Shown piece after piece: positions 6,392 through 61,146 of a stretch of 64,000 nt of DNA; the stretch's first letter is position 1; each line of letters begins with the position of its first letter. A model generated the notes under the pieces. It did no database searches. It was not told where the DNA came from and saw only the letters and a list, made by a program, of their open reading frames with translations. The translations under genes and the position numbers were made by a program. Source of the stretch: Prorocentrum cordatum (taxonomy: Eukaryota); the NCBI GenBank assembly GCA_963575745.1, contig CAUYUJ010000146.1, forward strand, positions 1 to 64,000. Direction: 5' to 3'.

Positions 6392-6434
<43 letters not shown>

Positions 6435-27879: not shown

Positions 27880-27907
27880 ATCCAGAAACCGCATTAAAGT
27901 GATCATT
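27880..27907 (+). repeat. Left terminal inverted repeat (28 bp)
   Basis: TA|ATCCAGAAACCGCATTAAAGTGATCATT; matches the right TIR at 27/28 positions. Confidence 0.92.
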
Positions 27908-27919
27908 TGTTTTTTCGCC

Positions 27920-28005
27920 CCCCCCTCTGTCACAGAGGGGGTCAAATATGCCCCCCCTCTGTCACAGAGGGGTTCCCAGATGCCCCCCCTCTGTCACGGA
28001 GGACC
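27920..28005. repeat. Left subterminal array of palindrome CCTCTGTCACAGAGG (3 copies)
   Basis: Copies at about 27924, 27956 and 27988 (the third is degenerate), about 32 bp apart. Confidence 0.85.
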
Positions 28006-28857
28006 TCGTTCTGGGTGCTCTTCTGCCACGGGAGCTCCCGATACGATTGGAGACGATAAAATGTGATAGCGGGATGGGGGATTGGAGGGGGAGGGAGAAG
28101 AAAACGATGAAGGAGAGGAGGCAACGACAGCACCGATGAAAGCACCGTTTCTTTTTCGTTCTCCGCTCGGGCAGCGGTCGCCGAGCACGACGGCGCGCGC
28201 GAGTCGCCGCCGCTCACGATGCATTGGCAAGGCCTCCGCTGCTGCGGAGGGTCGACGTTCGGCCGATGAGGCCTCCCTCCGCTGCTGCGGAGGGGCGGCT
28301 CCTGTGCGATGGTTCAACTAAGCTTTTCCCAGGGATTGGTTTCGGGGGGGGGTTCGACCCACCTCCAAGTCGTGGTCGCGACCTCCCAGTGCCCCTGGCC
28401 GCTACTCCACCCACTGTGGCTGCTCCACCAGTCACTGGGGCGTTGGTCGCTGCCGAATGCAACTTGCATGTCGCGCCAGGCGGAGTCGACCATGCGGTCC
28501 TGCAGCGAGGAAGCCTCGCCGCTCGGCTGTTGCCACTCGCGCTCCTCGCCCTCCTTGGTGCGCCACCACTCATCCCTGCGCCACTCCTCCGTCTGTTGGT
28601 TGCTGCCGTGGCGTTTGTGGCCTCCGCTGCTGCGGGGGCTCTGGCGGCTCGTGGCCGAGGGCAGCGATCGCGTCCGAGATGTAGCTGGCGGCGCCGCGCT
28701 GCCCTCGCTGCTCCAGCGGCGCAGGCCCTGGAGATGGGCACTGCGGGGTCGGCTGCCACCTTGGGGGTGATAAATAATTATTTCTATATCCCCTCCCTGT
28801 CAACTCCCGCCCCTTCCCGACACTCATTTCCTTATGTCATCCCTCGTCCTGCTCAGC

Positions 28858-30927
28858 CTATTCCTCATTCCCTCTCCTCCCTCCTGCCCTCCCCGTGCTC
28901 CACCGCCCCTCTCCCCCCCTCCCCCTTTCAACCCCCCGCCGCGACCTTCCATCGCCAGCCGCGGGCATGTCGCGGCCGTCGTCCGCGCTTTCGTCTGCCC
29001 ATCTTGGTGGGCGCCACGCCTGTTGGGCGCGCTCGTCTTGCTCGCCCCTCTCGCTGTGCTGCTCTGGTGCCTGGCGCTCGGGTCCGTGCTGCTCGGGCGG
29101 CAGCGGCGCCCTGAGCGCAGCTGCCAGCCGTTTCTGGGCGCGCCTGTCCTTCTTCTCTTTGGCTCTCTCCTGCTTCCTCCCCTGCGAACGCACGCTGGCC
29201 ATGCGCATTTGGAACAGGAGAGGGTAGTGGGCGCCGCCGTGCCAGCGCCCCTCCACCTCCACGGTCTCTGGCGGGAACGTCTTCTGCAACGCGCGGAAGA
29301 GGGTCACCTCGCGATTACTAGAGAAGCGGTGGCCCCCTCTAGCCTCAGCCTCGGCGCGCCTCAGTTTCTCACCCTCCTTCTCTTGGATCTTGCGTTGGCA
29401 TTCCTCTGACTGAGTCAGTAAATCCTGAAGGTGCTCGCGGGCGTCTTTTTTCGGGTAGTAGCAAGAGTAAGGCATCCCAGGGCCTCCGTTCTGGCTGTGG
29501 TGCCAGTACGTCGGCTGCGATGATGGGCTGGTGGAGGCCCCCGCTGCTGCGGGGGCCTCTGCCTTGCTTCTGTTACGGTACCCGATCTCACCGATCACCG
29601 ACTTGCGTGCGAAGAGCAACCCCGTCTCGTCTCTGTCGTGCACGGCGCTCAGCGGCCAGCACAGGGTGTACTCGCCAGGCCTGTTGAGAACGAAGATGCC
29701 GCAGCTGTCCAAGCACGGAGTGCCGTCCAATCCGCGCCAGAAGTACGCTGCTGCCGTCTCCAATCGCATGCCTAGACCCCGAAGACTCGGCAGCGCCTGT
29801 GTGAGCGCCATGTTGAAATCCCCACAAAGGATGTCAACGCTGTTGTCCTGCAAGATGGTCGCCAACCTCGGCCACCACGTCTTGTGAGCCTCGTTGAAGC
29901 CTCTGGATTTTTTCGCCGTGTCGCGGTGGAGGTGCACCGCGCACTCCCGCACTTTCGAACCGAAGTGGGCGTAGGTTTGATCGAAGTAGATCTCAACCAC
30001 CATGATCCTCGAGAACGCTTCCATCTTGCGCCCTTTTGCTGTTCTGTAGTGGCCGTCGACACTCCTTTCCCAGCGGAGCAGCCGCATTTCGTAACACAGA
30101 TTTGCGCGCGCAGCGATGCACAAGGACTTGTCCTCACGCCCGCGCAGGGTCAAGTATTCGTACTCTGGTCGATTCTGGAGCTGTTGGCAATCGCCAACAC
30201 TCGCAGCACGACTTCCTCTTGCTGTCGCCATCGCTGCTGCGGGGGCGACAAAAGGCCCACCGCTGCTGCTGCTTTGGCCCTCCGCTGCTGACGCCCCCGC
30301 TGCTGCGGGGGCGTCCGCCTGCAGCGGCGGTGGTCTCCCTGGCCGCTGTAGGATTGACTCCATCTGCTCCTCACATTCCGCAAAGCACGCCACGAGAGCA
30401 GGGCAATGCCGCAGCTGCAACTCAAGTCTCCGCCGCTGGTCCGCGTGGTTGGTCTCGCTCGGCATGGGGCCCCAGTTCCCGAACAGGACGGAAAGGTTGC
30501 CCACGTTGTCGTTCCGTGGCCTGTTCACGTCAGCCGCTCTTCTTTCGCAGAAGAATTTTGGCGGGACGGTGTCGCGAAGAACGCATTCGCGCCGCTCGAC
30601 GTCGTTGGGCGGCCTGCAGCCCCTAAATTCCTGAGGCTCTTCGTCATCGCTCGGATCCACCACGGAGTCGCCTGGGCGGGTGCGTATCGTAGAAACTTCT
30701 GATCGCGCCGCCGCTGCTGAGCTTGAGACGCCGGGCGGCGCAGCCCCCGCTGCTTCGGGGGCGCCCTCTGGCACAAGGGCCCAAGGACCCTTCCAGGGTT
30801 CTGCCTGACCACCTACAGGTCGCCAAACCTTCCCAGATTTCGCTGCGAACACTGCCGTCAGTCGGCCCCGAGGCCCCGCTGCTGCGGGGCCCAATGGGCT
30901 GCTGCTGCTGCTGGTGGCCGCGGCCAT
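28858..30927 (-). CDS. EEP (endonuclease/exonuclease/phosphatase, APE-like) domain protein, cargo
   Basis: 689 aa with EEP-like motifs in order: LFGNWG, FAECE, AVHLH, ILCGDFNMA, LDSCGIF, GAHYPL. Confidence 0.75.
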   Translation of the reverse strand: MAAATSSSSSPLGPAAAGPRGRLTAVFAAKSGKVWRPVGGQAEPWKGPWALVPEGAPEAAGAAPPGVSSSAAAARSEVSTIRTRPGDSVVDPSDDEEPQEFRGCRPPNDVERRECVLRDTVPPKFFCERRAADVNRPRNDNVGNLSVLFGNWGPMPSETNHADQRRRLELQLRHCPALVACFAECEEQMESILQRPGRPPPLQADAPAAAGASAAEGQSSSSGGPFVAPAAAMATARGSRAASVGDCQQLQNRPEYEYLTLRGREDKSLCIAARANLCYEMRLLRWERSVDGHYRTAKGRKMEAFSRIMVVEIYFDQTYAHFGSKVRECAVHLHRDTAKKSRGFNEAHKTWWPRLATILQDNSVDILCGDFNMALTQALPSLRGLGMRLETAAAYFWRGLDGTPCLDSCGIFVLNRPGEYTLCWPLSAVHDRDETGLLFARKSVIGEIGYRNRSKAEAPAAAGASTSPSSQPTYWHHSQNGGPGMPYSCYYPKKDAREHLQDLLTQSEECQRKIQEKEGEKLRRAEAEARGGHRFSSNREVTLFRALQKTFPPETVEVEGRWHGGAHYPLLFQMRMASVRSQGRKQERAKEKKDRRAQKRLAAALRAPLPPEQHGPERQAPEQHSERGEQDERAQQAWRPPRWADESADDGRDMPAAGDGRSRRGVERGRGGEGRWSTGRAGGRRGNEE

Positions 30928-31059
30928 CGCTCCCTGCCCCCGCGTTGCAGGGGGGGGCGGCCGTCAGAGCCGAACTCCTGGGGCCGAAACGGCGGTGGAA
31001 GGAGGGGGGCGGGGCGAAGAGGAGGAAGACGGGGCGGATAGGGAAGGAAAGGGCGGGCA

Positions 31060-31300
<241 letters not shown>

Positions 31301-31637
31301 GAATGATATAATGACCAGGAGAGATCAGGGAGAAGGAGGGGGGAGAGCAGGAGGAGGGGCGGAGTGATCGACACCCGCGTGGTTTTCTCCCCCTGCCTGC
31401 TCTCCCCCTCCTCTCACCTCCTCCCCCGTCCCCCCTCCTCCCTGTTTCTTCTGCGCAAGGCCTGCGCTACGTCCGCGCGCGCACGCGGCACCTCAGTCGC
31501 AGGCAGGTGGAAGAGCAGTGGCTGCTGCCCGAACTCACACCCCGCGCCTCGCCGCTGCTGCGGCGGGCCGCGCCTCTCAGAGGCCCCCAGCTGCAGGGAG
31601 CGCAAGCGCCAGGGAGCCAGACAGACGGCGTCGCGTC

Positions 31638-34616
31638 TCACTGTGCACAAACATGCTGAAAGCTCTCGGGTTGCCCCCCCAAGTACTCGTCAATGACGTT
31701 CTGCAACCATGTGGCAAACGTCTCCGGCCACTTTCCACCGAAGTCCTCCATGCCAGCGGCGTCCCACTCCCGCCGAAACCAGTCAAAATCTGACCGCTGA
31801 GCTGCAGAAAGCCCAGAACCCAAAATCGCAAGGCGATTCAGCGCGTCGTACCTCGACGTTCGACCCGCCACGCCTCCGCAGCTGCGAAGGCCCGCGCCCA
31901 GCTCGGATAACCCGACATGCTTCATCCTGTGTTTGATATCTATGGCTGCCTCTGCGTCTAAGAGTTTGGCTTGCTGTGTCCTCAGCAGCTTGCGCGCTTT
32001 CTTTACGTCGTCCCCCAGGCGGGTTAGCTCTTCTCTGCGCCGCGCCTCGACATCCCGCTGTCGTTTCTCGTTTCTGAGCGTCGCCTCGCGGGCGTCCTCG
32101 TATGCTGCGAGGGCTCGCTGAACCCCAGGATCTTCCTTCGACACTTCACGCACTCGCCTCCGTTCTTTCCGTAATTGCGTCTCCATGAACGTGGCCCCCG
32201 CGATGTCGCCCCAGCTGCGCAACTCCTCAGCGATCGACGAATGCGTTCTCATCAATTCAGACGTCTGCTCCGCAGTTTCCATACGAGACGTCGACAGGCC
32301 AGGCGGTGCCTCCAGCGCGCTCTCCCCCGCCGCTGCTGCGGTGAGACTTTGATTGGCCCATTCGTAGTCAAACTCGCCAGCGGCGCTCCACCCGTCGTCG
32401 TCCTCGCTCCCATCATCTTCATCTCCTTCGAGGGCGTCGACGGAATTGCCACCCTCAGTGCCCCCGCTGCTGCGGAGACCCTCGGCTGCGTCTTCCGCCC
32501 CCTCCATGCCATGCCAAATCTTGTCGCCCTCGTCCAGAGCCGTGTCGTCTCCAAGGTTTGCGAACACGTCGTCGCAGTGGCCGCGTCGAGGGCGCGGGAG
32601 GACCAATCGCATGATGTCTTTGTAAGTCCATCTCAAGCGCCCCGCCTGTACCTCTTCTTCGACCTCCGCTACTGCGGCGGCGACCTTCTCACGCATCCCC
32701 AACTTTCTCCAGAAATGGCCTGCCTCCTTGCACATGCGCGCGTCCAAGTCCGCATCCCGCAGATTTGCCTTGAAACCAGTTTCCCAGTACCAGTCTGCCG
32801 CAGCCAAGTGAAGACTCATTTGGAACATCACTTCCACCATCAAGTCAATGCATTCTAACTTGTCCAGCTGTGGGACGCACTGGCCCAGCCTCATGGCTCT
32901 CAGCAGCGCGGCTCCTTCTCTCTTCATGTACTCGCGCTTGGCGTGTTGATTCAGATGTGTGTCCACAGTTTGGAGGATTGGGGTCACGCCGCCCCCGTGC
33001 GGGATGAACACGTACCCTCGAGACCAACACAGCTTACTCACAAGCGGGGACAAGTGAGGGCCATGATCATCCGCCATCATAATTCTCCACTCCCGCTGCT
33101 GCGGAGGCTCTGGCAGATGAGGGAGGTGGCGGTCCAGGTACGCGAGCACGCACGGTGTCCGGTAAGACCCCTTGGTGCTGGTGGTCGCCGACACCCATCT
33201 GCCGAACCCTCGGCGCCGAAGGTGTTCGAGCAGGCGCGGCCTCAACTTCTCTCCTCCCCCCTCCGCCTTGAACATGCACTCCATCGGTGGGGGGCCTTCT
33301 CTCCGCAGTCGATCCTTGTCGCTCATTGTCATGAAATTGGCCGTCCACCGCTCCCGCACCGCGCCGTGGCACTCCACCAGTGGCACTTCGACCCCCGCTA
33401 CTGCGAGGGTCCTCACGCCAGCTGATCCTGTTTCATTGTGGTGGAAAGGCGACTGGTCGAAGTTCTCCATCTCGGGATCCTGCTCGTTGAGTAGCACGCA
33501 CGCGGCGCGCGCCCTAAACACGTTCAGCCAGCCTCGCTCGAGGCGCTCTTCCAAGACGGGCAGCGGGCACTTGTACTTCCTGTTCGGGTACCGCATGCTG
33601 AGGCCGTATTCCTTGCGCCAGGAGGCCCACCAGCGCGACCTCAACTCCACGGCGGCGGGTCGCTGCCCGATCCGCAGCTGCTGCGTGACGTACTCGCTCA
33701 TGAGCTCCAACGCTTTGGTCTGGAGCATGCTTTGCGTGAACCTTGCTATCTTCGCTGGCTCTCTTTGGGTACTTCGCAGTCCACTTTTGATCATCTTCCA
33801 ATCCACACTGTGCCGAATGGAACTCCACCATTCAAACAGAGCTTGCCGCAGCCAAGGGCATTTTCGAGCTGGGCCCTGTCCCTGTTGTGGTATCCTTTTC
33901 CGCCCTTTCCACTTCAGGAGGCGCCCCTGCCCGTGCTGCTTCTCGTGTCCCCGCGGCTGCCGAACAGCCTCCGCTACTGCGGAGGCGTATTTCGACGACA
34001 GAAAAGCCTTGTGCCAGCGCCGCACAACGTGCGTGCGCTTCCTGAGAGGGAGACGGGACATGGAACCCCAGTCCCACGCATCCATGAATGAACGCGCCCC
34101 TCCATACGGAAAGCGGTCTCCAGGCGTCCAGCCTAAAGAGCGCATGTGCTCGTCGAAAGCACCCGCTATCTCCATCCTCGAGCACAGGAGCGACGGGACC
34201 ACCACGCGCTTCTTGTTCTGGGCGGGGGCTTTGCGCTCGCAGCCGCGGTTCCTGTACCTCAAGAGCTGCTCCTCCCGCTCTGCGGGCATCAACTCCCGAG
34301 CTACGTCCAGGGCGCACGCAGCGTCTGTCAGTCCTGTCCACCATTGGATGGCTTGCACGAGCTCCTGACAGACAGCCTCGGCGTCGACTTCCACCACTGC
34401 CAAGTCCTCAGGTGGCGCCGCCGCTGCTGCGGCGGCAACGCCCTGTGCTCTCGGAGGGGCGGCGTGGCCAGGCTGCGGGACAAGTTCTTCGTCGTCTAAG
34501 GCGCTCTGCAGGCGACGAAGCTCCTGGACGTCATCCTGCGTGACTTCTTGTGTCAGGACCATCGCGTCGAGGAACCGCGCCAGACGCACCCTTTGCACGA
34601 TGTAGTCCGCGATGTC
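31638..34616 (-). CDS. pogo-like DDE transposase (CENP-B-type HTH plus DD35D catalytic domain); probable exon 2
   Basis: Open 997-aa ORF. HTH-like LRQALFEWW...LQTKALEL...SRWWASWRKEYGLSMR. Catalytic motifs NFDQSP, MMADDHGPH and GVTPILQTVDTHLN, with 35 residues between the second and third Asp as in pogo/Fot1. Confidence 0.9.
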   Translation of the reverse strand, partial: DIADYIVQRVRLARFLDAMVLTQEVTQDDVQELRRLQSALDDEELVPQPGHAAPPRAQGVAAAAAAAPPEDLAVVEVDAEAVCQELVQAIQWWTGLTDAACALDVARELMPAEREEQLLRYRNRGCERKAPAQNKKRVVVPSLLCSRMEIAGAFDEHMRSLGWTPGDRFPYGGARSFMDAWDWGSMSRLPLRKRTHVVRRWHKAFLSSKYASAVAEAVRQPRGHEKQHGQGRLLKWKGRKRIPQQGQGPARKCPWLRQALFEWWSSIRHSVDWKMIKSGLRSTQREPAKIARFTQSMLQTKALELMSEYVTQQLRIGQRPAAVELRSRWWASWRKEYGLSMRYPNRKYKCPLPVLEERLERGWLNVFRARAACVLLNEQDPEMENFDQSPFHHNETGSAGVRTLAVAGVEVPLVECHGAVRERWTANFMTMSDKDRLRREGPPPMECMFKAEGGGEKLRPRLLEHLRRRGFGRWVSATTSTKGSYRTPCVLAYLDRHLPHLPEPPQQREWRIMMADDHGPHLSPLVSKLCWSRGYVFIPHGGGVTPILQTVDTHLNQHAKREYMKREGAALLRAMRLGQCVPQLDKLECIDLMVEVMFQMSLHLAAADWYWETGFKANLRDADLDARMCKEAGHFWRKLGMREKVAAAVAEVEEEVQAGRLRWTYKDIMRLVLPRPRRGHCDDVFANLGDDTALDEGDKIWHGMEGAEDAAEGLRSSGGTEGGNSVDALEGDEDDGSEDDDGWSAAGEFDYEWANQSLTAAAAGESALEAPPGLSTSRMETAEQTSELMRTHSSIAEELRSWGDIAGATFMETQLRKERRRVREVSKEDPGVQRALAAYEDAREATLRNEKRQRDVEARRREELTRLGDDVKKARKLLRTQQAKLLDAEAAIDIKHRMKHVGLSELGAGLRSCGGVAGRTSRYDALNRLAILGSGLSAAQRSDFDWFRREWDAAGMEDFGGKWPETFATWLQNVIDEYLGGQPESFQHVCAQ

Positions 34617-34790
34617 CTGGCGGGCGGGCATGGAGGAGGGGCAAGGAGACTCGGTGGTGAGGGCACGAGGGGGGAGAAGGGCGGGATGGGAGAGGCATGA
34701 AGGAAAAATGGGGAGACAAGGAGGGGAAGAGCATGTGGGGGCAGCAGAGATGGAAGCGAAGGATCAGGGTGGTCGGAGAGAGCAACTGTC
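34617..34790 (-). other. Putative 174-nt phase-0 intron, GA...AG
   Basis: Minus strand reads CAG|GACAG...CAG|GACATC; the interior is pyrimidine-rich; removal yields in-frame ELRQ-DIADYI. Confidence 0.7.
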
Positions 34791-36251
34791 CTGGCGGAGC
34801 TCCCTGCGAGACTCTCGCGTGGAAACCTCCTGGGTCATCTGCAGCATGCAATCCAAACCGCAATCCCCGTCTGCGACTGTGGACGCGACGAACGCACCGA
34901 GAGCCGAATAGAAACCGTCCACCGTCGAAGCATCTCCCGTGAAATCCACAAAGTCGGTGGAGACGCCTGCGATAAAATGATTGCATAGAAACAAAGGATA
35001 CTCCTCCGACACGGGGGCCCAGTCCGGTGGCCCCGATTCTCGGGGGGCGGCGCAACGCGCGATCGCGTCCACCGCAGGCTCGCGGGTTAACTCCTCTAGT
35101 TTCCACGGCGGCAAGACAGCTTTGCAAAGGTCGACTCTGTTGCGTCCTTCCCACGCGTAGACGCGCACCTTCCGCAGAAGCGCAAAGATTACGAAAGCAG
35201 AATACCCTATCCACTCTCGGCCTCCCCCCGGCCTTCCGCGAATACTGCGCGACAACTTCATCAATTTCTCGAAGCACCTCTGGCCTTGTTCTGAAAGTGC
35301 CCCTGCAGGCGCCCCCGCTGCTGCGGGGGCGCCTGCAGGGGCAACCGCAGCGCCTGCTGTCGCGGCTGTCTGTTCACAGGCGGTCACTGCAGCAACTTCC
35401 GCCCCTGGAAGCACGGGTTCCGCTATGTCGCGAACAGCAAGCGGGGCGGGTTGGGGGAAAGCGACAGGGGCAACCTCCTTTGCTGAGAGAGCTGCTGTTG
35501 CCGCGGAGTCCTTCAAGGCAGACTCCACTGCGGAAGCGGCCTCGGCGATTGCGTCGGCGCCATGCGCGCCAGCAGGACCTACGGACGCCTCCGCTGTGGC
35601 GGGCTCTGCAGAAGGGCACGCGCACGGCGCCGCCGCCACTTCAGGAGGAGGCGCGCACGCTTCCGCTGACGCACCCGCTGCTGCGGGGCCGTCAGAAGAG
35701 CCCACATACGGCTCCGCTGCCACTTCAGCAGGGGCCACGCACGCCTCCGCTGACGGCCCCGCTGCTGCGGGGCCTTCAGCAGGGCCCACCGACGGCTCCG
35801 CTGCCGCTTCAGCAGGGGCCTCGCACGCCTCGGCCGGCGCCTCCGCTGCTGCGGGGGCTCCCGCTCCTGCGGGCCACCCGCCCGCGCATTGCACTAAATG
35901 CCAGGGCGCTTGCAAGTCTGACCACTTATTGTAGTCCACGGAACCGTCCGCCAGACGATGGTCGCTGGGACACGGCCACTGCGAGCAGAAATGAATCTTC
36001 TTACATATGCGTCTGCCAGAGTCATAATGGCAAGCCGCGCCGCTGCTGCGGCGCATAACGTACCCGAATCCGAATATTGTCCCCTTTAGTTTCCGTGGGT
36101 TCATGAGCACTCTGTCGGGGTCTTTCTTTTTGTCTTCTTGGTACCAAAACTCCACAAATTCGTTGGCCTCGCGGTCGTGCCCGACTCGCAGAGGCGCGTT
36201 TGCAGGGCGAGCGTCTCCTGGGTCTGGAGGCGGAGCGGCTGCGGCTGCCAT
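34791..36251 (-). CDS. OTU-like cysteine protease-containing exon (probable exon 1 of the transposase gene)
   Basis: Part of ORF 34764..37076, likely starting at MAAAAAPPPD (36251). Contains EWIGYSAF..., CNHFIAG and TVADGDCGLDCM...RELRQ, which continues as DIADYI in the transposase ORF. Confidence 0.7.
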
Positions 36252-37129
36252 GATGCCGAAGCCATGCGCGCGCACGCGCGGCCGCCCTCTGGTCTCGAGC
36301 CCAGCGCTGCAGGGCAAGCAAACGGCCGCATCCCCCCACAAGGAGGATGTACAAGGGGGCGGGAGGAACGAGGAACAAGGGAGATATGCGGGGACCAGCG
36401 GACACACGCCTGAAAAAACACGACCGTCGGCATGCTTCGCGAGGGTTGCTGCTGTGAGATGGGCTGGTGAGGAGGGGCCCGAACGACTCGCACCAGGACG
36501 AGCGGCCCGAACGACGCGCAGAAAACTCAGAAGCATGCACACACGAACGAACGCCCCGAACGACTCCGAGAACACTCCCCAGAAAGCAAGGCCAGAATGT
36601 AGGAAGTCGTCGACGTCGTCGTCGAGGGAAGGCGAACGCGGCACGGGGGATGATGATAGTCTCCTCTTCCACCGTGAAGCAAGAGCCCCCCCAAAAAAAG
36701 CGGGCCGCTCGGGCGTTTGTATTAGACGCCAAAAGTGCAACATTCCTGCAGGCCGCCTCTGCAGGAATTGAGGCGCAGCCCCTCCCGCAGCCGCGCTGCG
36801 GATGCGCCAGCGGGCGCGGGGGAGCGGCGGCGGCGCCAGCGCGCAGCTGGTAGCTGTCCCCTCCTCCCCCCCCATCATGGCGATGATGAGAATGATGAGC
36901 ATCCTACGATGATGAGGCCCTATGTCCTGTCCCAGAGTCTCGGGCCCCGCCCTGGGCCGCGGGCCACGCCCCTGCGACCGTGTTATATATACATACATAT
37001 ATATATATATAAATACACACATATACGTATGTACATACATATACGTCGACACACCATACATACACAATATATACATATATGCATCATGTAATCAGTCAGC
37101 GGAGGCCCGACGCCGCCCAAGACGACCGC

Positions 37130-37815
37130 ACGGAGCGAGAGGCAGAGCGTGCCTCGAGACAATATTTTCTGTTTCTCAGGGGTTTTCTCTGGTTGGCGAC
37201 GCGCCGCCACCTGCTTCGCTTTCGATGCGCCCTTCACGGTTCCGAGGAGATCCGCCATGGGATCCCGACCTTTTTCTCCCGCTGCTGCGGGAGATCCTGC
37301 TGCAACCCCCGCTGCTGCGGAAGCGTTTTTCACAGGAGTCGACGCTTCATCCACGTTGTCTCCTTCTCCGACGCGAAGCTTCCCAAGCACTTGCTCTAAC
37401 ATTGTCGTTTCGTTCAAGGCGCCCTTCACGGCACTGAGACCACGGACCACCTTGAGCATGCACAGGCGGTGCTTTCCGACGGGCACGAAGGCTTCTAGGC
37501 TTTCCTCGCCGCCAAAGGGAACATAGCGCTCCTCAAATTCCAGAGCAAATCCCGATGCTCCCTCGTGACTTCGGCACAGTCCGCCCGTCGCGCAGAGCAC
37601 CCCCATGCTCGCGTCATCTTGGCGCGCTGCTTTCCCGATAACGACATCCCGCCATGTTTCCGATGCCTTGCGTTTCATGCCGCCGCGCGCAAGCCCTCGC
37701 TGCTGCGAAGGCGCCCGCGTTCTAGGTGTCAACTCCCCTCACTGGTGGCCCGCCTGAAAACGGCTATGGGAAGCGGACTCCTCGTCTCGAACAAATCCTC
37801 CTACTTCTCATCGGA
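37130..37815 (-). pseudogene. Truncated duplicate of the 5' part of the 318-aa gene
   Basis: Highly similar to about 39020-39670 (MKRKASETWRDV vs MKRKAEDTWREV); breaks off before the AT microsatellite. Confidence 0.75.
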
Positions 37816-37849
37816 CTCCAAAACCTAACCACTTCTTGTGGTCGCTTTT

Positions 37850-38215
37850 CCACGGCCACTGCGAGCATAAATGAATATTCTTCCATGTGCGTTTGCCATA
37901 TTCATAATGGCAAGCCGCGCCGCTGCTGCGGCGCATAACGCAATTACCCGAATCCGAATATTGGTCTCTGTAGTTTCCGCGGATTCATGAGCACTCTGTC
38001 GGGGTCTTTAGTTTTGTCTTGTTGCTATAAAAAACTCCACATTCGTTGACCTCGCGGTCGTGCCCGACCCGCAGAGGCGCGTTTGCAGGGCGGGCGTCGC
38101 CTGGGTCTGGGGGCGGAGCGGCTGCGGCGGCCATGATGCCGAAGCCATGCGCGCGCGCACGCGGCCGCCCTCCTGTCTCGAGCCCAGCGCCGCAGGGCAA
38201 GCAAACGGCCGCATC
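37850..38215 (-). pseudogene. Frameshifted duplicate of the start of the OTU/transposase exon 1
   Basis: Similar to 35970-36335 (MAAAAAPPPDPGDARPANAPLRVGHDRE). Confidence 0.75.
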
Positions 38216-38579
38216 CTCGCAATGATCCTCCTGTCGGTGCTGCTAGTGTGCTGTTGCTGTTGCTGCTGCTGTTGCTCCTCCTTCTCCTCCTCCCCCCCCC
38301 CCCCCATCCTACTGGTCCCAACCCCTCCACCCCGTCCTCGCCAGATTCCGCGAGTTCCTTTTGTCCTCTAGCGCGCGAGCGCTGGAGAGCCGCAGGCCCG
38401 CGATCCCCCGCGCGTGCCCTAACCCCTGTCCAGTCGACAGGAACCCGCAGGCATCCACCTCAGCGGTCAGCGCGCCGCTGGCGCGGTGCATACACCGAGT
38501 CTGTTTGCACAAAAAAAGCCGTTGTAGCGGTCAGCGCGCCGCTGCTGCGGCGCGCGCCAGCGAGCGGATAACGAGGGCA

Positions 38580-39536: not shown

Positions 39537-39809
39537 GCCGCCGTGCGCAAGCCCCCGCTGCTGCGAAGGCGCGCGCGTCCTAGGTGTCGGCCCCCCTCAC
39601 AAGTGAACCGCCTGAAAACGGCTATGGAAAGCGGGCTCCTCGTCTCGAACAGATCCTCCTACTCCTCATCCGCATCATGCTCCCTCCACGAGCTTCTTTC
39701 CATCTCATCCAACCCATCCCCCTCCTTCTCTCCGAACGAGCACAGCTGCCTTCCCTGTCCCTTGACCGCTCCTCTGCCCCTTGAGGGGGGGCCTTGTGTG
39801 CTCTGACCG

Positions 39810-43157: not shown

Positions 43158-43372
43158 CTATCCAGGCGCCCCCGCTGCTGCGGGGGCAGCTTCCCAAACA
43201 GATGCTCCGCGACGGTTGCCCCCGCTGCTGCGGGGCCCCGCTTGAAGCACGAGTGCCTGTCGCGCGCGCGGACAGAAGGAGGGGCCTCACGGATCCGCGG
43301 CCTGCCCGCACTTGAGCAAAAGGAGAAGGAGAGGAAAGGCAGATAGAGGGAGAGAGACAGAGAGAGAGAGAC

Positions 43373-43431
<59 letters not shown>

Positions 43432-44945
43432 GAACGGCGGGCCGACGCGGCCTTCTCAGTTTTTCGATACGAGCACATCCGCCTGAACAGGAGAAGCATT
43501 GATACATCGGCCCCCCCCCTGTGTGAGAGAAAGGTTGCCCGCCCCGGACCCATCTGTGAGAGAAAGGGGCGCTGTGAGAGTTGCGTGTATGGAAGCGATG
43601 ATCACTACAAAGACATAATGACGGGCGGGGGGTTGCAGGAGGGAGTGCAAGGGGAAGCGAAGCAAAGGAGAGAGCAGGACACAGGTGACAGCACAGATGT
43701 CGTGTTTTCCCCCACACCGCATGCGATGCCGCACGCGGCGCGCGAAACCGCGCTCCCCCGCGCGCGCGCGAGTGCGCCCCTCCGCCGAGGTCACTCTCCT
43801 CGGCGAAATTCTCGCGACATCCCTCCGCTGCTGCGGAGGGGCGTTCCCCTTGTGCGCTCGGGATGTCGTGGTCATCCTGAGGACCGTACAATCAACCATG
43901 TGGGGGCACTGTCGTGTTCATCCGCCCCGTAATTACATGCGAAGGGGGTCGGCGCCTTCTTGCCAGGAGCTGCCGACTGGCGGCATCTTGGACCCTAGTT
44001 TGTACCAGTTGCCCCAATGGTCGCGGTACCAAAGTGCCTGATCGAATGGATCGTCATCCTCCACACCTGTCCTCCGAGCAGTCTTCTCATCCCACAACCC
44101 ACCACGCTCCAAGACAGCAGCCCCCGCTGCTGCGAGGGCTACAGCAGCCCCCGCTACTGCGAGGGTTTCTTTCTTGGAGCTCGCCTTGCGCCGAGCTAGC
44201 GGCCGCGCGGCCGCCTTCGCCGACGCTGCCGTGGGTCGAGCCGCAGCCCCAGCGCGCTTGCTCGAATGAGGTCTGTGATCGGGTTTCCGAAAAGCCCTCT
44301 TCTCGCCGACGCGGCATCGTCCCGTCCTTGTGTCGGGTTTCCTATTCCTCTTCTCGCCGATGCGGCATCGCCCGATCCTTGCGTCAGGCTTCCTAACCTT
44401 CATGGCTGGCGATCTCGAACCCAAACGGCACGGCAGAGATCGGGAGCGGGACAAAGAACTGACACATGGAGCGGGACCGGGACCGGGAGCCCGGGACCGG
44501 GACCAGCACCGACACCGGGACCGGGGCCGGGTCCAACACCCCCGCGTTCCCGGTCCCGGTCCCGGTCCCGGTCCCGGCCCCGGTCCCGGTCCCGGCCCCG
44601 TGGTCGGTTCTGCTGCTCGTCCAGGGCTCCCCGTCCCTGTCCCGCTCCCGGTCCCGGTCCCGCTCTCCCCTTGGTCCCGGTCCCGGTCCCGGTGTCGGTC
44701 CTGGTCCCTGCAGGACCCCTCCTCCTCCTCCTCCTCTTGCTCGCCCTCCTTTCCCCCCCAGCAAAAAGCAGACGACGACGACGAGCACGACGACAACGAC
44801 CACGATTTCTTCAGCCGCTCAATGCGAGCGCCTGCCTCCTCGCGCGCGCGCGCGCGCCGAGCCCGCGCCTCAGATCTCTTATGATAACCCCCGCTGCTGC
44901 GGAGACCACCCCCGCTGCTGCGGAGGTCTCCGCAGCCGCGCGCCG

Positions 44946-47628
44946 TCAGCTGGAGTCGCTTGAAGGGCTGCGGCGCCGCGACAATGCCTCGAACGCGTCA
45001 CTGTTGAACGCAAACGTGTCCGCAGGAAGCGGCGACTCCCTGGAGAGGAGCTGCGGCGGGGGAGGCTGCGGCGGCGGCCTCGGGACGAGCGGCGCTGCCA
45101 GAGGGCGGGGCGTCTGCGACTCTCTTGGCAGGAGCCGCTTCGGCGGAGGGTGCGGCGGCTGGCTCGGGACGAGCCGCGGTGGCGTAGGGTGCGGTGTCTC
45201 CTCCAGCGGGGGGGCCCCGCGGCGTCCTCCTCCACGCGGGGGAGATGGCGGTGGTGGTGGCATCATTGGCGGCATGCCTGGCGGACGGCATATCTGGCCT
45301 GGGAGGAGCGGGCGCCATGCCCTCGGCCTCAGCATCGCCTGACCTGTGTGGGGTGGGTGCGCGGGCGGCGTGGGCAGGAACCGCCCTGCCCACGCCGCCC
45401 TGCGGTCGCCGCCCTCCACCTGCCCACTGCGTCTGGAGCGGCTGCGCCCCCTCTGCTCCTGCCCTCTGCGTCTGGAGCGGCTGCGCTCCCGCTGCTGCGA
45501 GGGCACTCTCCTCATTCGGTCTTTGCTCCTCTGCTCCCGCTTTCTGCGTGTGGAACGGCTGCCCCCCCGCTGCTGCGAGGGCTTCGCCCTCTTTGGGGTT
45601 CTGCTCCTGATATCTTTCTTCTTGTTTTTCTTCTTCTTCTTCTTCTTGTTTTTCTTCATCTTCTCCTTCTCCTTCTTCTCCTCCCTCTCACCTCTGTCAG
45701 GGTTGCTCTGTTCGTCCTGGGGCGGCGTGGGGCTGCAGAGGCCGACGGCGTCGCGCCCGTCGCCCTCAAGCTCCTCCTGGGCTCCGTGCGCCCCCGCTGC
45801 TGCGGAGGCTGCTGCTTCAGATTCTGTCTCCGCCTCCTCCTGGTCTCCGTGCGCCTCCGCTGCTGCTGAGGCTGTTGCTTCGGGTTCTGTCTCCGCCCAC
45901 TCTCCCCGCTGTTTTTCCCACTTGGCTTCCCGCTTCCGATCCTTCTTCCTGGCCGCGGCGCCTTTGCCAGACTTCCTGTTCTTGGCTTCTATAAAAAACG
46001 AACAATGTGTGGCAATGTTCCGTGAGGCGGTTCGCATCCTGGGCCTTGTGGATCACCCTGTGCAAGTGCGGCCAGTCATATGTATCCTGCTCCTTGCGCT
46101 CCGCGTCCGTGAGCCTGACCCAGGTCGGACGCGCCACCCAATCCAACTGGCGGTACTGCAGGCTGGTGAGGAGCCTCCGCTGCTGCGGAGGCTGGGAAAC
46201 CTGATTCAACCAGTGCGGCAGATCAGGCTGCCCGCCCGCAGGGCACTCGCGAACCTGAGCGGGGCCAAGAATCACGATGTAGTGCGGGTGCGTCACGTGA
46301 TAACCTTTTGTCGGACACCACAAAGCCAAGCCGAGTACGCCTGTACCAGACGCGCCGCAACTTCTGAGCAGCTCCGAAAGATCCTCCCTGTCTGCGTCAA
46401 AGATCCCAGCGAGAATACGCACTCGGTGCCACAACGCCAGGTTCCGCAGCCCGTTGCGGAAGTTTTCGGGCCACGGGTGCCCCGCGAGGCTCGTCTGGTG
46501 TCGGAAGAACACGCCCCCCACTGCTATGGAGAGTTTGCCTTCCTTTGCTTTCGGATTGTGAGCCACCGCTGCCAGGGTCACCGACCAGGCCTGAACCAGG
46601 AACTTCCCGTGGCAGTGCCAGCGAAGCACCTCGCACTGCTCGACGCGCTCGGGAACCCAGAGGAGAGCCCCGACGCACTCGCGCGCGACCTCCCCGTGGA
46701 AGCCACTTTGGCGGATGAGATCGTCGAGATGTTGCTTCCGCCGATCGCGATTGATGCGTGCACCAGGCTCGAAGGAGACTAAGACGACCCCTTCGCGCCT
46801 GTCCCTGACAGCTGCGACCCAATCCGACAGGGAGGCGCCCGCGCGCAGGACGAGGGAAGCAAAAGCCAGATTCACGCGCGCCTCTGTCTGCCCCTCCTGC
46901 ACCTGGTCTTCGTCGTCGTACAGCAGGGGCACAAGAGGCTTGGAATGGCTCGGGCCGCGCTCTTCCGATGGGAAGTGCGGGCGGCCTTCCTCTGGGAAGC
47001 CCTCTTGGACAGGAAGCGCTGGCGACCGAGCCTTCGAGGTCAAGGCGAGAGTCTTGATCACGCGGGCCCCCGCTGCTGCGGAGGAGCTTTCACGCAGTTT
47101 GCGTGCTGCGATCAGAGCCTGCCGTTGTCGCCAATTAGTCGTGCAGGGAGATCTCGGTCTCGGGTCATCGGAGCCACCCTGTCCAGGCTCGATTACCACT
47201 GTGGCGGCGCCTGGCTCCACGGATGCCCCCGCTGCTGCGGAAGCCGCCTCCTTAGCCGTTATGACTACAAGGCGGTTGGCGGCGGCCGTTAACTTCCGCG
47301 CCTCTTCGATCCGGCCATTCTCCATCATTTCCTGAGCAACCAGCAGGCTCTGCGAAACGCTTTCCTGGGCACCAGACATCAACGAAAACAATGACCGAAG
47401 TTTCGTTGCAACCTCCCCCCCCGCTGCTGCGGAGGCCGGTGCTGGATCTGCCATTCCATGCGGAACTGCATCAGGGGCCTCCTCTGGCAGCCCCCGCTGC
47501 TGCGGAGACTTCGGCAGAGGTTCCTGCGCGGCTCCAGTCGCGCCAGGCTGCTCCATGCCCTGGGCCGCCCCCGTCGCGGAGGCGGGCGGGCGCGGCGGGG
47601 GGCGGACCTGCAACGGCTGCGGATTCAC
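44946..47628 (-). CDS. Divergent second EEP-like paralogue with basic/Pro-rich tail; one frameshift at A-run 45993-45998
   Basis: RILAGIFDAD aligns with ILCGDFNMA, and EHCHTLFVFIEAKNRKS with GAHYPLLFQMRMASVRS. The second copy (63693-63697) is in frame at this site. Confidence 0.55.
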
Positions 47629-50359
47629 TTTATCGCAATGCCATCCCTCCCTGCGCTCAAATGACTTTTCCCCTTGCGCCAGTCTGCTGCTCCCACTTCT
47701 GAACTACCTCATCCCTTCTACCTCTGCCTGCTCCCTCCTCCTCCTGTTCAGTCCTCCCTCCTCCCTCCACCGCGCTCATTTCTCCTTGCTCCCTTCTCTG
47801 CTCCTCCTACGTGGGGCGTTTCACGACAGCGACGACGACGACGACGCCGACGAGAACGATGACCGCGACGGCGACAACGAGGGCAACGACGACCACGACG
47901 ACGACGACGAGGACGATGACCACGACGGCTACCAGCGACGACGACTAGCGACGACGACGATCGACGACGACGACGCCGACCACGACGACGACGGCGAGGA
48001 CGACAACGAGCGACGACGACGACGACAATCGACGCCGACGAGGAACGACGACGACGAACGAGGACGACGATTACGACGACGAGATGACGAAGGATCGAAG
48101 ATCGAACCTCGAAGTGCGAAGCTTCGAAATTCAAACTTCGATCTTCGAACTCCGAACTTCCAGCTTCTAACTGCGAACGTCGCTGGGGTGCCAGGGATGG
48201 ACTGGGATGGAGGGAAAATGGGAAGGAAAAGCGAGGAAGCGGGAGAGGAAGTTGGAGGAGAACGAACAGGCGTGGAGCGACGAGGAACGGGCGGCGAGGA
48301 GCCGACGTTGAGGGCGGCGGGATGGGGGGACAGGGAGGAGAGGGGAGACTTCAAAACGAAAATCGCGCCACGGCGCCTGCACGCGCGCCCCCGATCTCGG
48401 CGGCCGACGCGCGCGCCCCTGCAGAAATGCAACGCGCCCTTCATTCGAGCCCCGCTGCTGCGGAGCCACCTACTCCACAACCAAATCGTCTGGGGAGCTG
48501 TTCGGACCCCAAACTACTAGTTCTTCAGCCACTCGGCTCTTGCGAGTCCGCCCTCATGACAAGGGCAACCTTCACATGGGGACACTCAATGGGGTGTTGA
48601 TTGAGAACGCCCCATGTGGCTGGTGGCAGGAACGGACGAGGGGGGGCGGATAGAGGAGCAGGACGAGCACTGGCAGGGGATATGCACCAGGAGAGAGATC
48701 TCATGGAGGAAGAGGAGGGGAGGGGACGAGAGCCACTCATAATTAAGCGCACGCAGGCCCACGCACGTGCTCCATTTCTCAGCGACCGCCGCGCCGCCAT
48801 GAGAACTGTCGTACCACCGCCGCTACTGCGGCGGATGCGTGACCTCTCCCATCCCTGTCCTGCGCTGTTTCTGCTACCGCCCTCCCCCCTTCCAGCCAAG
48901 CTCGGGTTTCATGCTCGGAGACGGGCGCGGCTGGCGGCTCTTAGTGCGGGTGCGCGTGCTGCCTCCAACTCCTCATCCCCCTCCTCCTCCTCTCCTCATC
49001 CCCCCTCCTCTTCCTCCTCATCCTCCTCTATCGGCCCAGCTCCGATCGCCGCTCAGCTCTCCTGGTGCGGCTGGCGGCAAAAGTACCGAAAATTGCCTGG
49101 GGTGTCCTTCGCCGTCTTCTTCGACATCTCAAGCATCATCTTGCCCTTCTCCTCGGTACGGCGCGCCTCCTCCATCATCTGCCGCGCCTGGTCGACGAGC
49201 ATCTGGCCCTTCACTCCAACGGCGCGTGCATGGCGGCAACGATTGCGGCAACGATTGCGCCGTGGTCGCCCAGTGCCAAACGCTGCCCTCCGTCGCGATG
49301 AGCTCGAAGTCATCGACGTCGCACTTGCCCGCGATGCTCGCCATAGCGGCGCAAAAACCGCGAAGGGGCCTCCTCTGGCAGTCCCCGCTGCTGCGGAGAC
49401 TTCGGCAGAGGCTCCTGCGCGGTTCCGTCGCGGAGGCGGGCGGGCGCGGCGGGAGGCAGACCTGCAACGGCTGCGGCTTCACTTTATCGCATTTCCATCC
49501 CTCCCTGCACTCACATGGCTTTTCCCATTGCGCCAGTCTGCTGCTCCCACTTCTGAACTACCTCATCCCTTCTACCTCCATCTGCACCCTCCTCTTCCTG
49601 TTCAATCCTCCCTCCTCCCTCCACCGTGCTCATTTCTCCTTACTCCCTTCTCTGCTCCTCCTACGTGGGGCGTTTCACGACAACGACGACGACGATGACC
49701 ACGACGGCGACAACGAGGGCGACGACGACCACGACGACGACGACGAGGACGATGACCACGACGGCGACCAGCGACGACGACTAGCGACGACGACGACCGA
49801 CGACGACGACGCCGACCACGACGACGACGGCGACGACGACAACGAGCGACGACGACAACGACAATCGACGCCGACGAGGAACGACGACGACGAACGAGGA
49901 CGACGATTACGACGACGAGATGACGAAGGTTCGAAGATCGAACCTCGAAGTGCGAAGCTTCGAAATTCAAACTGCGACCTTCGAACTCCGAACTTCAAAC
50001 TTCGAACTGCGAACTTCGCTGGGGTGCCAGGGATGCAATGGGATGGAGGGAAAAATCGGAAGGAGAGAACGAGGAAGCGGGAGAGGAAATTGGAGGAGAA
50101 CGAACAGGCGTGGAGCGACGAGGAACGGGCGGCGAGGAGCCGACGTTGAGGGCGGCGGGGTGGGGGGACAGGGAGGAGAGGGAAGACTTCTTAACGAAGA
50201 TCGCGCCACGGCGCCTGCACGCGCGCTCCCGATCTCGGCGGCCGACGCGCGCGCCCCTGCAGAAATGCAACGCGCCCTTCATTCGAGCCCCGCTGCTGCT
50301 GCGGAGCCATCTACTCCGCAACCAAATCGTCTGGTGAGTTATTCGGTCCCAAAACTACT
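47476..50359. repeat. Internal ~1-kb direct duplication (47476-48516 vs 49366-50359) including (GAC)n tracts
   Basis: Colinear high similarity visible by eye. Confidence 0.85.
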
Positions 50360-51500
50360 GTTTGCCACCCGCTGCTGCGGACGCCGAGGGCCTGGTGCTG
50401 GACGCCGCGGCCCCGCTGCTGCGGGGCCCCTGAGAGGGCGTCGGCCCCCCCTTCTCTCTGGCGGCGTCGAACTTGACCTTGCGCTCCACACCGAGGTCCT
50501 TGTGCCAGCGAAAAGTTCCTGACCCGTCGCTCCCGCCCAAACCCGCGGTTGGTGGCCTCACCGTGTCCGCGTGGGGGGCGAGGGGCAGAGCTTCGACCTT
50601 CCTGTCGCCCCAGTGCGGGTGTAAACGGACGCCTGTCCCGTCGTCGCGGTGCAACACGAAATCCCACATCGGCAGCTTCACTTTCACCCGCTGCCCCGCG
50701 AACTGTCGCGCGCGCACAATACTCTGACGCATGTGGTCGTAGCTGTTTGGCCGGACTTCGAGGGAACAGCCGATCAGAGCCCCGCTGCTGCGGGGCCCCT
50801 CCACGACCTCCCTGATATCTTCCCCCCTGGGCGTCGCCACCATCTCTTGCCACCGCCAAGGGACTTCCTCGTCGCTTTTGAAACCAAAGCTCGTCCTCGC
50901 ACCGTGGTCGCAAACAGCGACCATGGTGGGCTCCGCATTGTCAAACCACTTGGCTTCTCACTCGAACGGGGCAGTTGGGTCTTCATTCAGATGGCGCCAC
51001 CATTTCAACGCTTGATTGTGTTGCTGAAACGCCGTGCCGGGCCTCTCTTCATAACTCAAAACATAATTAACATCAAACTTCTCAAAATCCTGGGGCCCGC
51101 GCGCCGCCGCCGCTGCGGTGGCGCGGGGCTCCTGCGCCGCAGGCGCGGCTCGGGATCCCGACCCCTCTCCTGAAACTGTGTTCCCAGGTTCTGGTACGTT
51201 TCGGAGGGCAGCCCTCACGAAATTATCGAATTCGGGCATGCCGAGACCAGGGGCGCGGGGGCTCACAACGCCAAGCGCGGCGAAGCGAGACGGCCGTTGA
51301 GGCGAGACCGCCGCCGCTGCTGCGGCGGCAGGGCCATCGCGCCATTTGGCGTCCTCCGTTGGCGTGTGCCCGTCTTGTCGCCAGTCTCTCCAACCCCTCG
51401 CTGACCAATCATGGCCGTCCTCCCAGCCACGCCAGCCGCTGCTGCGGCTATCCCACCATCCTCCCGCGCCATCCCATGTGTATCCGCCTGCATCGCCCAT
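50355..51500 (-). pseudogene. Hypothetical cargo gene with one in-frame TGA (50958-50960)
   Basis: MGDAGGYTW...HNQALKWWR...PFE*EAKWF...WRWQEMVA...WDFVLHRDDGTGVRLHP; both listed ORFs share one frame. Confidence 0.6.
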
Positions 51501-51924
51501 TGCAAGACGATGGCGCAGGCGCGCGTTAGGCCGCGACGGGCCCAGCTGCACCGGCGCTCGCGGGCGATCCCACGGGCGCGGGATGGTTTGAGCATAGCGG
51601 CGACGGACGACGCGACGTGATTGGACGGCGGAGAACTTGAAAGGAAGGGGGGTTGGAAACGAATGAACGAAGTGGACGAAGAGCGGAAATCGAACCAGAG
51701 GGAGGCGAAAAAAGAGCGGAAAAGAATAAGGACATGCAGACGAAGGAGAGTGACGAGGTAGATGGCGGGCCAGAACGGCAACGGAGGATAATGTGGTGGA
51801 AATTGTGAAAAGGACGCATGGAAAAACACGACGAGGATCACAGACGCAAAGATGATGAGCGCAGTGGTAGCATGACATATCCGAAATCAAGAAGCAGGAT
51901 GACGAGGAACGGGATGACGAGCAA

Positions 51925-52035
51925 CTCTGTCGCAGAGAGCCTCCGAACGCACCCCCTCTGTCACAGAGGGCCTCCGAACGCACCCCCTCTGTCACAGAGG
52001 GCCTCCGAAAAACACCCCCTCTGTCACAGAGGGCC
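51925..52035. repeat. Right subterminal array of palindrome CCTCTGTCACAGAGG (3 copies plus 1 degenerate)
   Basis: ~30-bp tandem unit directly inside the right TIR. Confidence 0.85.
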
Positions 52036-52037
52036 TC

Positions 52038-52065
52038 AATGATCACTTTAATGCGGCTTCTGGAT
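52038..52065 (-). repeat. Right terminal inverted repeat (28 bp)
   Basis: AATGATCACTTTAATGCGGCTTCTGGAT|TA. Confidence 0.92.

Positions 52066-61087: not shown

Positions 61088-61146
<59 letters not shown>

Follow-up and report, generated by a model that had tools for sequence, protein, structure and literature searches.

A 64,000 bp stretch of the Prorocentrum cordatum genome (positions 1–64,000 of contig CAUYUJ010000146.1 in GenBank assembly GCA_963575745.1; here called the window) includes, at positions 27880–52065, one element of 24,186 bp that is bounded by 28 bp terminal inverted repeats (TIRs). The TIRs are identical at 27/28 bases, and a search of the window allowing up to 3 mismatches returned only this pair, where 0.00 matches were expected (100 shuffles). 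A TA dinucleotide abuts each TIR on its outer side, and inside the TIRs lie matching subterminal arrays of a short palindrome, CCCTCTGTCACAGAGGG. All of the long open reading frames (ORFs) in the element are in the minus strand. A preliminary description of this DNA had reported the TIRs and their spacing, the flanking TAs, the subterminal arrays and the co-oriented ORFs, and each of these was found as described. An array of the same palindrome near the centre of the element, which is larger than those at the ends and has 104 nt arms that are 96% complementary, was not mentioned there. The features are listed in Table 1. Taken together with the findings set out below, they make it probable that 27880–52065 is one copy of a large TA-targeting TIR DNA transposon, belonging to a family that lies outside every Pfam model and is characterised by a conserved set of genes and by hairpins in the coding strand.

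Table 1. Positions in the window of the element, its genes and repeats, and its partial second copy
Feature	Position	Strand	Remarks
TA, left copy of target-site duplication	27878..27879		Contigs of run X3 start matching at 27878
Left 28 bp TIR	27880..27907	+	ATCCAGAAACCGCATTAAAGTGATCATT
Left subterminal array of palindrome CCCTCTGTCACAGAGGG	27919..28002		2.6 units of 32 bp
45 hairpin cores	28236..51447	-	Coding strand reads CCGCAGCAGCGG; outermost copies at 28236 and 51436; found both in ORFs and in spacers, roughly 1 per 540 bp
EEP1, EEP-fold nuclease/phosphatase gene	28858..30963	-	Core modelled from 29104-30546
Transposase, P0001	31638..34631	-	997 aa; triad D392, D521, D557
CT-rich, lineage-specific segment between protease-like domain and transposase	34613..34797	-	Bounded by 11 nt direct repeat CCGCCAGGACA; 174 nt period
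ORF with protease-like domain	34767..37091	-	C-terminal domain of about 145 aa (H290; D326-G-D-C329-G)
Internal tandem duplication, about 1.86 kb	35959..39670		35959-36333 resembles 37839-38216; 37214-37812 resembles 39072-39670
Gene c5, conserved family	38580..39596	-	Upstream of the protease-like domain in relatives
Central array of palindrome CCCTCTGTCACAGAGGG	39780..40150		Core 39890-40111
Large ORF, earlier labelled 'ParB/SET-like'	40056..43157	-	Conserved part 41058-43157; homologue upstream of c5 in L024
ORF P0120, earlier labelled a second 'EEP'	45817..47703	-	Resembles EEP1 only weakly and locally
Gene X, divided by one stop into two ORFs in the same frame	50358..52064	-	50358-50957 matches X of L061, L064 and L076 (N-terminus in L076)
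Right subterminal array of palindrome CCCTCTGTCACAGAGGG	51925..52037		3.6 units of 31 bp
Right 28 bp TIR	52038..52065	-	Reverse complement of left TIR with 1 mismatch
TA, right copy of target-site duplication	52066..52067		
Second, partial element copy	59945..64000	-	Equals 42230-46301; 98.7% identity over 4074 bp

When 29 members were aligned, three aspartates of the P0001 product proved invariant, the second and third of them separated by 35 residues (557 − 521 = 36), in agreement with the DD35D enzyme proposed earlier. Residues 230–700 were modelled with AlphaFold (AF2; pLDDT 82.0, pTM 0.73), and when the model was compared with solved structures (VIA), it matched Mos1 with a Z score of 13.7 (root-mean-square deviation 3.9, 210 aligned), SETMAR with 13.5–13.6 and Sleeping Beauty with 12.1, while retroviral integrases reached no more than 9.6. 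Foldseek ranked the same proteins at the top, with weak E-values (1e-3 to 3e-2) and probabilities of 0.80–1.0. On the basis of the fold match, the invariant triad and the TA duplication, the enzyme is predicted to be a DDD (DD35D) transposase with an RNase H fold, in the IS630/Tc1/mariner/pogo superfamily. The P0001 sequence itself had no match in Pfam, PHROGs or PDB. A protein collection clustered at 90% contains at least 97 homologues, all of them lacking a Pfam domain, and a profile search of 1.84 billion proteins returned 3589 representatives at E ≤1e-3, 2294 at E ≤1e-10 and 840 at E ≤1e-30.

Of the proteins encoded alongside the transposase, EEP1 is the one for which a fold could be assigned. 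A model of 29104–30546 (pLDDT 81.8, pTM 0.80) gave 85 Foldseek matches at E ≤1e-3, the best being TDP2 (E 2.3e-7, probability 1.00), followed by CNOT6L and nocturnin. Over model residues 12–450 the VIA Z scores were 14–17, with TDP2, nocturnin, PDE12, CNOT6L and ANGEL2 at 15.4–16.6 and DNase I and NExo at about 14. These matches to the predicted structure confirm that ORF 28858–30963 encodes an EEP-fold protein. In alignments of EEP1, N24, H205, D243-F-N245, D280 and a G(A/S)HxP motif are invariant or near-invariant, which we take to correspond to the EEP catalytic motifs in their usual order (N/E, D-x-N, D, H), an assignment made from motif order and not from superposition. Two EEP nucleases had been proposed for this element, of which only the first is supported. 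ORF 45817–47703 has no Pfam match, and its likeness to the EEP1 family is weak (hhalign probability 17%, E 0.0015, 70 columns), with I-F-D at the position of D-x-N.

Two further labels are not supported. The large ORF at 40056–43157 had been called ParB/SET-like, but 0/14 members match ParBc or SET at E ≤1 and no relevant PDB match was found. It has 15 homologues, none with a Pfam domain, and only an HPQNR motif in it is reminiscent of the ParB box; ParB-like is used below as a name only. In the domain labelled a protease, a conserved H...DGDCG motif is present, with H290 and D326-G-D-C329-G of the domain (34767–35300) invariant or near-invariant in 34 sequences, but there was no Pfam match in 10 members and no PDB profile match. 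The order of His before Cys presumably fits Ulp1/adenain rather than OTU, and the OTU reading was rejected, as there is no conserved His downstream of the Cys. Neither c5 nor X has a recognisable domain. More generally, the window ORFs gave nothing meaningful in PHROGs or in Pfam, whether at E ≤0.01 or at E ≤10, and PDB sequence and profile searches with the transposase, EEP1, the protease-like domain and the ParB-like ORF yielded nothing relevant.

When metagenome contigs were scanned with the transposase alignment, 111 relatives were found and 80 loci, here designated by L numbers, were kept (29–79% identity). Using tblastn, the protease-like domain was found directly upstream of the transposase in 51/80 loci, many of the others beginning inside the transposase. 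EEP1 was found downstream of it in 10/80 and c5 upstream in 7/80. Clustering of ORFs placed c5 in 19 sources and EEP1 in 11, and also revealed family X. In many relatives this Cys/His domain is fused to the N-terminus of the enzyme, and the two form a single ORF of 1390–1543 aa in L061, L064, L040, L030, L022 and L001. L024, with a transposase 35% identical, has the order ParB-like, short palindrome, c5, protease-like, transposase, EEP1, and in L061 (13,172 bp) a palindrome array, X, c5, a fused protease/transposase gene and EEP1 are followed by a further palindrome array. The right end of L061, ...CTGTTGGAT followed by TA, is like that in the window, ...CTTCTGGAT followed by TA, and this 13 kb relative appears to be nearly complete.

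From this gene order, the unit of the family would be about 13 kb with four genes, namely X, c5, the protease-like/transposase gene and the EEP gene. The copy in the window is an enlarged version that contains about 10 kb extra between X and c5, together with the 1.86 kb tandem duplication, which is missing from L001 and L002 (77–85% identical to the window). The extra region of about 10 kb includes the ParB-like ORF, which is found also in at least one distant relative (L024). As the four genes keep their order in relatives down to about 30% identity, they are core genes of the family and not captured cargo as in Starships. Of the multi-gene cargo proposed in the preliminary description, the several genes are confirmed and their status as cargo, for the most part, is not.

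In L078, an ORF upstream of c5 (1030–2538) matches a protein kinase domain (E 5.7e-27) and, weakly, an HMG-box, and was the only one among 33 ORFs of relatives to yield anything in Pfam. It is possibly a true cargo gene in the family. The intergenic spacers of several relatives, L030 (4984–5524), L040 (484–527 and 5312–5946), L037 (5218–5536), L027 and L060, include TTAATTAATTAA runs that place stop codons in all frames of both strands. In L001, a 13 nt tandem array (GCGATCGGCGCGT-like, 21 exact cores) occupies 56–617, at the upstream end of the contig, in the place that the duplicated c5 region takes in the window.

In the window, two of the core genes are interrupted. The protease-like and transposase ORFs share a frame, and the CT-rich segment between them holds a single in-frame TGA (34764–34766). 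Distant relatives that lack this segment read straight through, and L001 retains it with indels that are not multiples of three and a frame that is still open. No register gives it GT-AG or GC-AG ends. Judged from its sequence, the segment may be a linker or an intron with non-canonical ends, and, flanked by a direct repeat, it looks no less like an insertion that duplicated its target than like an intron. Gene X is interrupted by one in-frame stop at 50958.

A second feature of the element, absent from the preliminary description and in our view its most unusual one, is a strand-specific hairpin that recurs along its whole length. The 12-mer CCGCTGCTGCGG (plus strand) is present in 52 copies in the window, 45 in the element and 7 in the partial second copy, with none in the opposite strand and none outside the element copies. 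Allowing one mismatch, there are 75 copies in one strand and 0 in the other, and 3/75 are outside the element copies. The 12-mer came to attention as the recurrent peptides AAAG, PQQR and RSSG in the translations. In the coding strand it reads CCGC-AGCA-GCGG, and the bases flanking this core also pair to give an 8 bp stem. In the 45 aligned sites, 78.6% of cells are paired, against 68.0±1.3 in shuffles (0/500 reach this value), and the covariation score is 0.313, against 0.139±0.016 in shuffles (again 0/500) and 0.096–0.129 when partners are slid. The four variable pairs that adjoin the core are paired in 37–42 of 44 distinct sites, using several types of pair, and among them G.T outnumbers A.C by 29 to 7 (p=3e-4), which identifies the coding-sense strand as the one that folds. 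Computed RNA folds of typical sites have energies of −19 to −29 kcal/mol. The region 27000–53000 has 0 Rfam matches at gathering scores.

Several simple accounts of the repeated motif were considered and rejected. It does not mark tiny introns or inserted mini-elements, as the ORFs remain open through the hairpins and some of these encode invariant residues (e.g. R513). A Chi-like role in end protection was ruled out because the orientation never switches along the element, and a host-wide motif because the 12-mer is missing from 35.7 kb of flanks. GCNGYNGC was too loose as a generic core (159 versus 160 matches in the element) and was replaced by CGC-NGYN-GCG.

Almost every related locus has its own dominant one-strand 10-mer of the same form, with loops that include AGTC, AGTT, AGTG, GGTG and GGTA. 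A variant, CAGC-TGT[ACT]-GCG with a bulged A, is found in L061, L063, L064 and L068. Across the 80 loci and the element (420,843 bp), CGC-NGYN-GCG occurs 1116 times in the transposase strand and 181 times in the opposite strand, and 75/81 sources have at least 3 copies; in the 35,658 bp of host flanks in the window there are 4 sense and 3 antisense copies. AGNN loops account for 897/1116 hairpins, and the dominant loop makes up a median of 78% of the hairpins of an element (68 sources with at least 5 hairpins). Between the window and L001, 105/108 positions are identical within motifs, compared with 4061/4857 overall. Six of 10 hairpin sites are shared between these two, and in one stem pair G-C has been replaced by A-T on both sides.

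The placement of the hairpins is also conserved. They recur at certain codons of the transposase, residue 472 in 48 loci, 286 in 38, 409 in 24, 652 in 22 and 835 in 21, and the conserved motifs encoded there include RSRG and LAVAG. Of 101 ORF stops, 53 are followed by a hairpin within 50 nt, compared with 14% of random positions (median distance 43 versus 215 nt), and in many loci one directly follows the TGA of the transposase gene. A role in stimulating readthrough of this stop was ruled out, as the frame beyond it is open for only 5–43 codons in the +5/+6 cases. In the 3' part of L022, the hairpin core forms a tandem array with a 15 nt period (6471–7236), and the 7.2 kb of this relative include the 12-mer 53 times.

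Other copies of the element were sought in Logan contigs of four sequencing runs (X2, X3, X4 and X8), aligned to 27620–31058, i.e. to the left end only. The element was detected in 4/4 runs. In X2, 1755 contigs matched the 3.4 kb, 954 of them at 99% or more, 558 at 95–99% and 243 at 90–95%; contig depth in the runs does not equal copy number, and this spread represents many diverged versions of the element. In X3, three contigs match from 27878 (the T of TA) inward, the preceding sequence being unlike that in the window (agreement 0.59), and look like other insertions that share the element boundary. The host flank at 27620–27849 had no contig cover in X3, X8 or X4, from which no inference was drawn. 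No contig representing an empty site (...CATGACTG-TA-GCATGG...) was seen among the run contigs, which were compared at the left end only, and no TIR-like sequence was found in the 80 related loci at up to 6 mismatches. The second copy in the window begins right after a 100-N assembly gap and continues past the end of the window.

The GC content of the window is approximately 0.50–0.68 per 2 kb, mostly about 0.6, and microsatellites are abundant, which gives it a eukaryotic look; they include long (AG)n tracts within the element at 31059–31300, in the spacer after the transposase gene, and at 43341–43426, before the ParB-like ORF. Just outside the right end, 52096–52135 includes pieces that resemble parts of the TIR (CCGCATTAAA and CCAGAAACC). 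These may be the decayed end of another copy, or the element may have inserted within an older related one. Arrays of a 10–11 bp unit (TCTTGGGGCC-like) are found further into the right flank, at 52344–52613, 53974–54075, 54505–54669 and 57068–57402. Near the start of the window, 837–6708 consists of a unit of about 2.2 kb present three times (88–92% identity), long (CTA)n arrays and a 60 nt sub-repeat present 15 times, and is unrelated to the element.

We infer that the element is capable of cut-and-paste movement, in which the transposase would bind the 28 bp ends, and perhaps also the stacked 17–19 bp palindromes, and move the element into TA. From what is known of the family, the palindrome arrays are likely to be further protein-binding sites. 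The co-orientation of the hairpins with all of the genes, the tolerance of G.T in the sense strand and the placement after stop codons point to a function in transcripts. The hairpins could mark, end or protect the 3' ends of transcripts, bind a protein encoded by the element, or both; alternatively, they could serve in the processing of a multi-gene RNA. That they act in RNA 3'-end formation or processing is our tentative reading, to which we would give somewhat less than an even chance. The EEP enzyme is a candidate partner, as its fold scores highest with the TDP2/CCR4/nocturnin group, which acts on RNA ends and 5'-tyrosyl links, and is offered as a lead only.

A number of observations weigh against parts of this interpretation. 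The function of the hairpins as RNA is argued from sequence, placement and computed folds, and G.T pairs form in DNA too, which leaves room for a role in single-stranded DNA. More than half of the hairpins are inside ORFs, where a 3'-end signal would truncate messages, and a signal in RNA leaves those at conserved places within ORFs unexplained. One conserved intragenic site, in the catalytic domain, folds weakly (−8 kcal/mol), and some lineages (e.g. L022) show little extension of the stem beyond 4 bp. The EEP subfamilies are separated by only about 1–3 Z units, practically a tie, so that their ranking does not reveal the substrate of EEP1. The stops at 34764–34766 and 50958 may mean that this copy is defective, unless they lie in introns. 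The run contigs included no copy with both ends and a different pair of flanks, so that joint movement of the full 24 kb is a presumption, and the central palindrome array and the 13 kb relative allow a compound origin. Finally, the Pfam models for pogo, Tc1 and mariner fail to detect the enzyme.

This last point bears on whether the enzyme belongs to the pogo family proper and is merely too diverged for Pfam, as the earlier assignment to pogo implied. The spacing of the triad is in the DD~35D range typical of pogo, the target is TA, the motifs around the three aspartates (NxDQS, DDxxxH and LQTxD..8..K..Y) resemble, we assume, those of pogo, and one of the 29 members matches HTH_Tnp_Tc5 (E 0.014). 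Pogo enzymes have helix-turn-helix domains of the CENP-B/Tc5 type at the N-terminus; in the model, helices precede the catalytic core. However, no Pfam transposase model, DDE_1, DDE_3 and Transposase_1 included, matched any of the 29 members at E ≤1, nor did these three match the window protein at E ≤10, and the structures used in the fold comparison were from mariner and Tc1 only, so that the fold cannot discriminate. The earlier assignment thus holds for the superfamily, through the fold (Z 12–13.7), triad and TA, and membership of pogo itself seems doubtful. A compound origin of the 24 kb seems about equally doubtful. A native unit of about 13 kb would have been enlarged by fusion or nesting of two members, or by gain of a module of about 10 kb, leaving the central array as a relic of former subterminal arrays, whether or not the 24 kb has stayed mobile as a whole. 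The palindrome unit of the central array is that of the ends, the additional segment is situated exactly between this array and X, and L061 fits the four core genes into about 13 kb without the ParB-like ORF or that at 45817–47703. Self-comparison of the window also revealed internal repeats (40293–40532 with 48652–48890, and 47571–48522 with 49425–50362) that would fit such a history. Yet the window has no further TIR when up to 3 mismatches are allowed, one type of hairpin (AGCA loop) is found throughout all 24 kb, and the extra region is itself present twice (98.7% identical). Moreover, the ParB-like gene, palindrome and c5 occur in the same order in L024, where the ParB-like gene contains hairpins of that element's own type.

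If the hairpins acted in DNA instead, they might fold as single strands during replication or transposition, or be oriented binding sites in the duplex for a protein of the element. Parallels exist in attC sites, the 3' hairpins of Helitrons and REP/RAYT hairpins. The CCGC-N4-GCGG core is a near-palindrome of the type used by dimeric DNA-binding proteins, strict co-orientation would also fit replication in one direction, G.T wobbles are tolerated in DNA hairpins, and the element encodes at least two nuclease-fold proteins. Nevertheless, placement after stop codons follows the structure of the genes, as a replication signal need not, and the orientation of the hairpins follows the coding strand in 75/81 sources. 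Tc1/mariner transposases are DDD enzymes that cut and paste without a single-stranded intermediate, and one of this kind would require none here. We regard a role in DNA as rather unlikely. An integrated virus-like element, in the size range of Polinton-like viruses and virophages, in which X and c5 encode capsid proteins, the hairpins are signals for packaging or late transcription and the DDD enzyme is the integrase, would account for the size of 13–24 kb, the compact co-oriented genes, the cysteine-protease-like domain and the hairpins after genes, as in the 'hairpin rule' of giant viruses. This we consider very improbable, as a search of 2.9 million viral contigs gave 8 pattern matches and 0 confirmed relatives, and Pfam revealed no polymerase, packaging ATPase, capsid family or rve integrase among the window ORFs or the 33 ORFs of relatives. 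Short TIRs with a TA duplication and the many diverged copies in the runs also speak against it.

Returning to the reading in which the hairpins of a TIR transposon act in RNA, the loop is uniform within an element and differs between elements, which argues for a reader that co-evolves with it. The element-specific AGNN hairpins might be an address label read by a protein of the element, the EEP enzyme, c5 or X, in a virus-like system of gene expression. This extension is speculative, and we think it less likely than a role in RNA ends or processing as such. If it is correct, the reader would cut, trim, stabilise or export the sense RNAs, whether one long transcript or several co-oriented ones, and loop and reader would change together, such that each lineage recognises its own transcripts alone. 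Hairpins within coding sequence would then shape the proteins too, through motifs such as AAVAG, RSRG and PQQR. Should the hairpins be read by an element protein, they and their readers would be a new source of naturally orthogonal RNA (or DNA) tags.

Elements of the Tc1/mariner type are the textbook example of a minimal transposon, with one gene between two short repeats. The family described here has thousands of representative proteins in public collections and a conserved gene set that is not named in any annotation library, and much DNA of this kind in assemblies of eukaryotic plankton and in metagenomes is hence currently unlabelled. The one-strand hairpin, which in the window ends exactly at the borders of the element, is a cheap signature with which such elements can be found and delimited. 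It also illustrates clearly how a nucleic-acid signal can be superimposed on coding sequence and be conserved for as long as the proteins.

The element shares with IS630, Tc1, mariner and pogo the TA duplication, short TIRs and an RNase-H-fold D,D,D triad, with Z scores of 12–13.7. It differs from them in size (13–24 kb in this family and 1–3 kb in those), in having at least four conserved co-oriented genes in place of one, and in its enzyme of about 1000 aa (approximately 1400–1540 aa with the fused N-terminal domain) that DDE_1, DDE_3 and Transposase_1 do not detect. The subterminal and central palindrome arrays and the strand-specific hairpin also set it apart. With Starships and Teratorn it has in common a length of tens of kb, defined ends and many genes. 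Starships use a tyrosine recombinase, Teratorn combines piggyBac with herpesvirus genes, and the cargo of such elements varies between copies, whereas the gene order here is conserved across relatives at about 30% identity; no tyrosine-recombinase domain of the Starship 'captain' type was found in the Pfam scans of the window ORFs.

Short stable stem-loops from a few to some tens of nucleotides behind a stop codon, in closely packed co-oriented genes, are known from the giant-virus 'hairpin rule', the histone mRNA stem-loop and the RNase III sites between genes of phage T7, and AGNN tetraloops like those found here are read by Rnt1p in yeast. Unlike the giant-virus signal, which can be any palindrome, the hairpin here has one fixed core per element. 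In contrast to all of these systems, more than half of its copies are translated as part of coding sequence, some of them at places that the family conserves, and its stems of about 8 bp are shorter than those of known RNase III substrates. Integron attC sites, REP, Chi and KOPS are likewise short strand-specific signals, often hairpins, that are present in many copies and tied to a mobile element or a directional process. Here, however, the signal belongs to a DDD transposon of a eukaryotic host, where it is found both in genes and in the spacers between them, and a single element has a uniform loop that is not the same in its relatives. The very large TIR transposon of unrecognised family that was first suspected at this locus is consistent with our search, in which no description of the element family or the hairpin motif was found in the open literature (Repbase and subscription journals lay outside it). 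The chemistry is of a known kind; what is new, as far as could be found in that literature, is the size of the element, its conserved set of genes and its system of hairpins.

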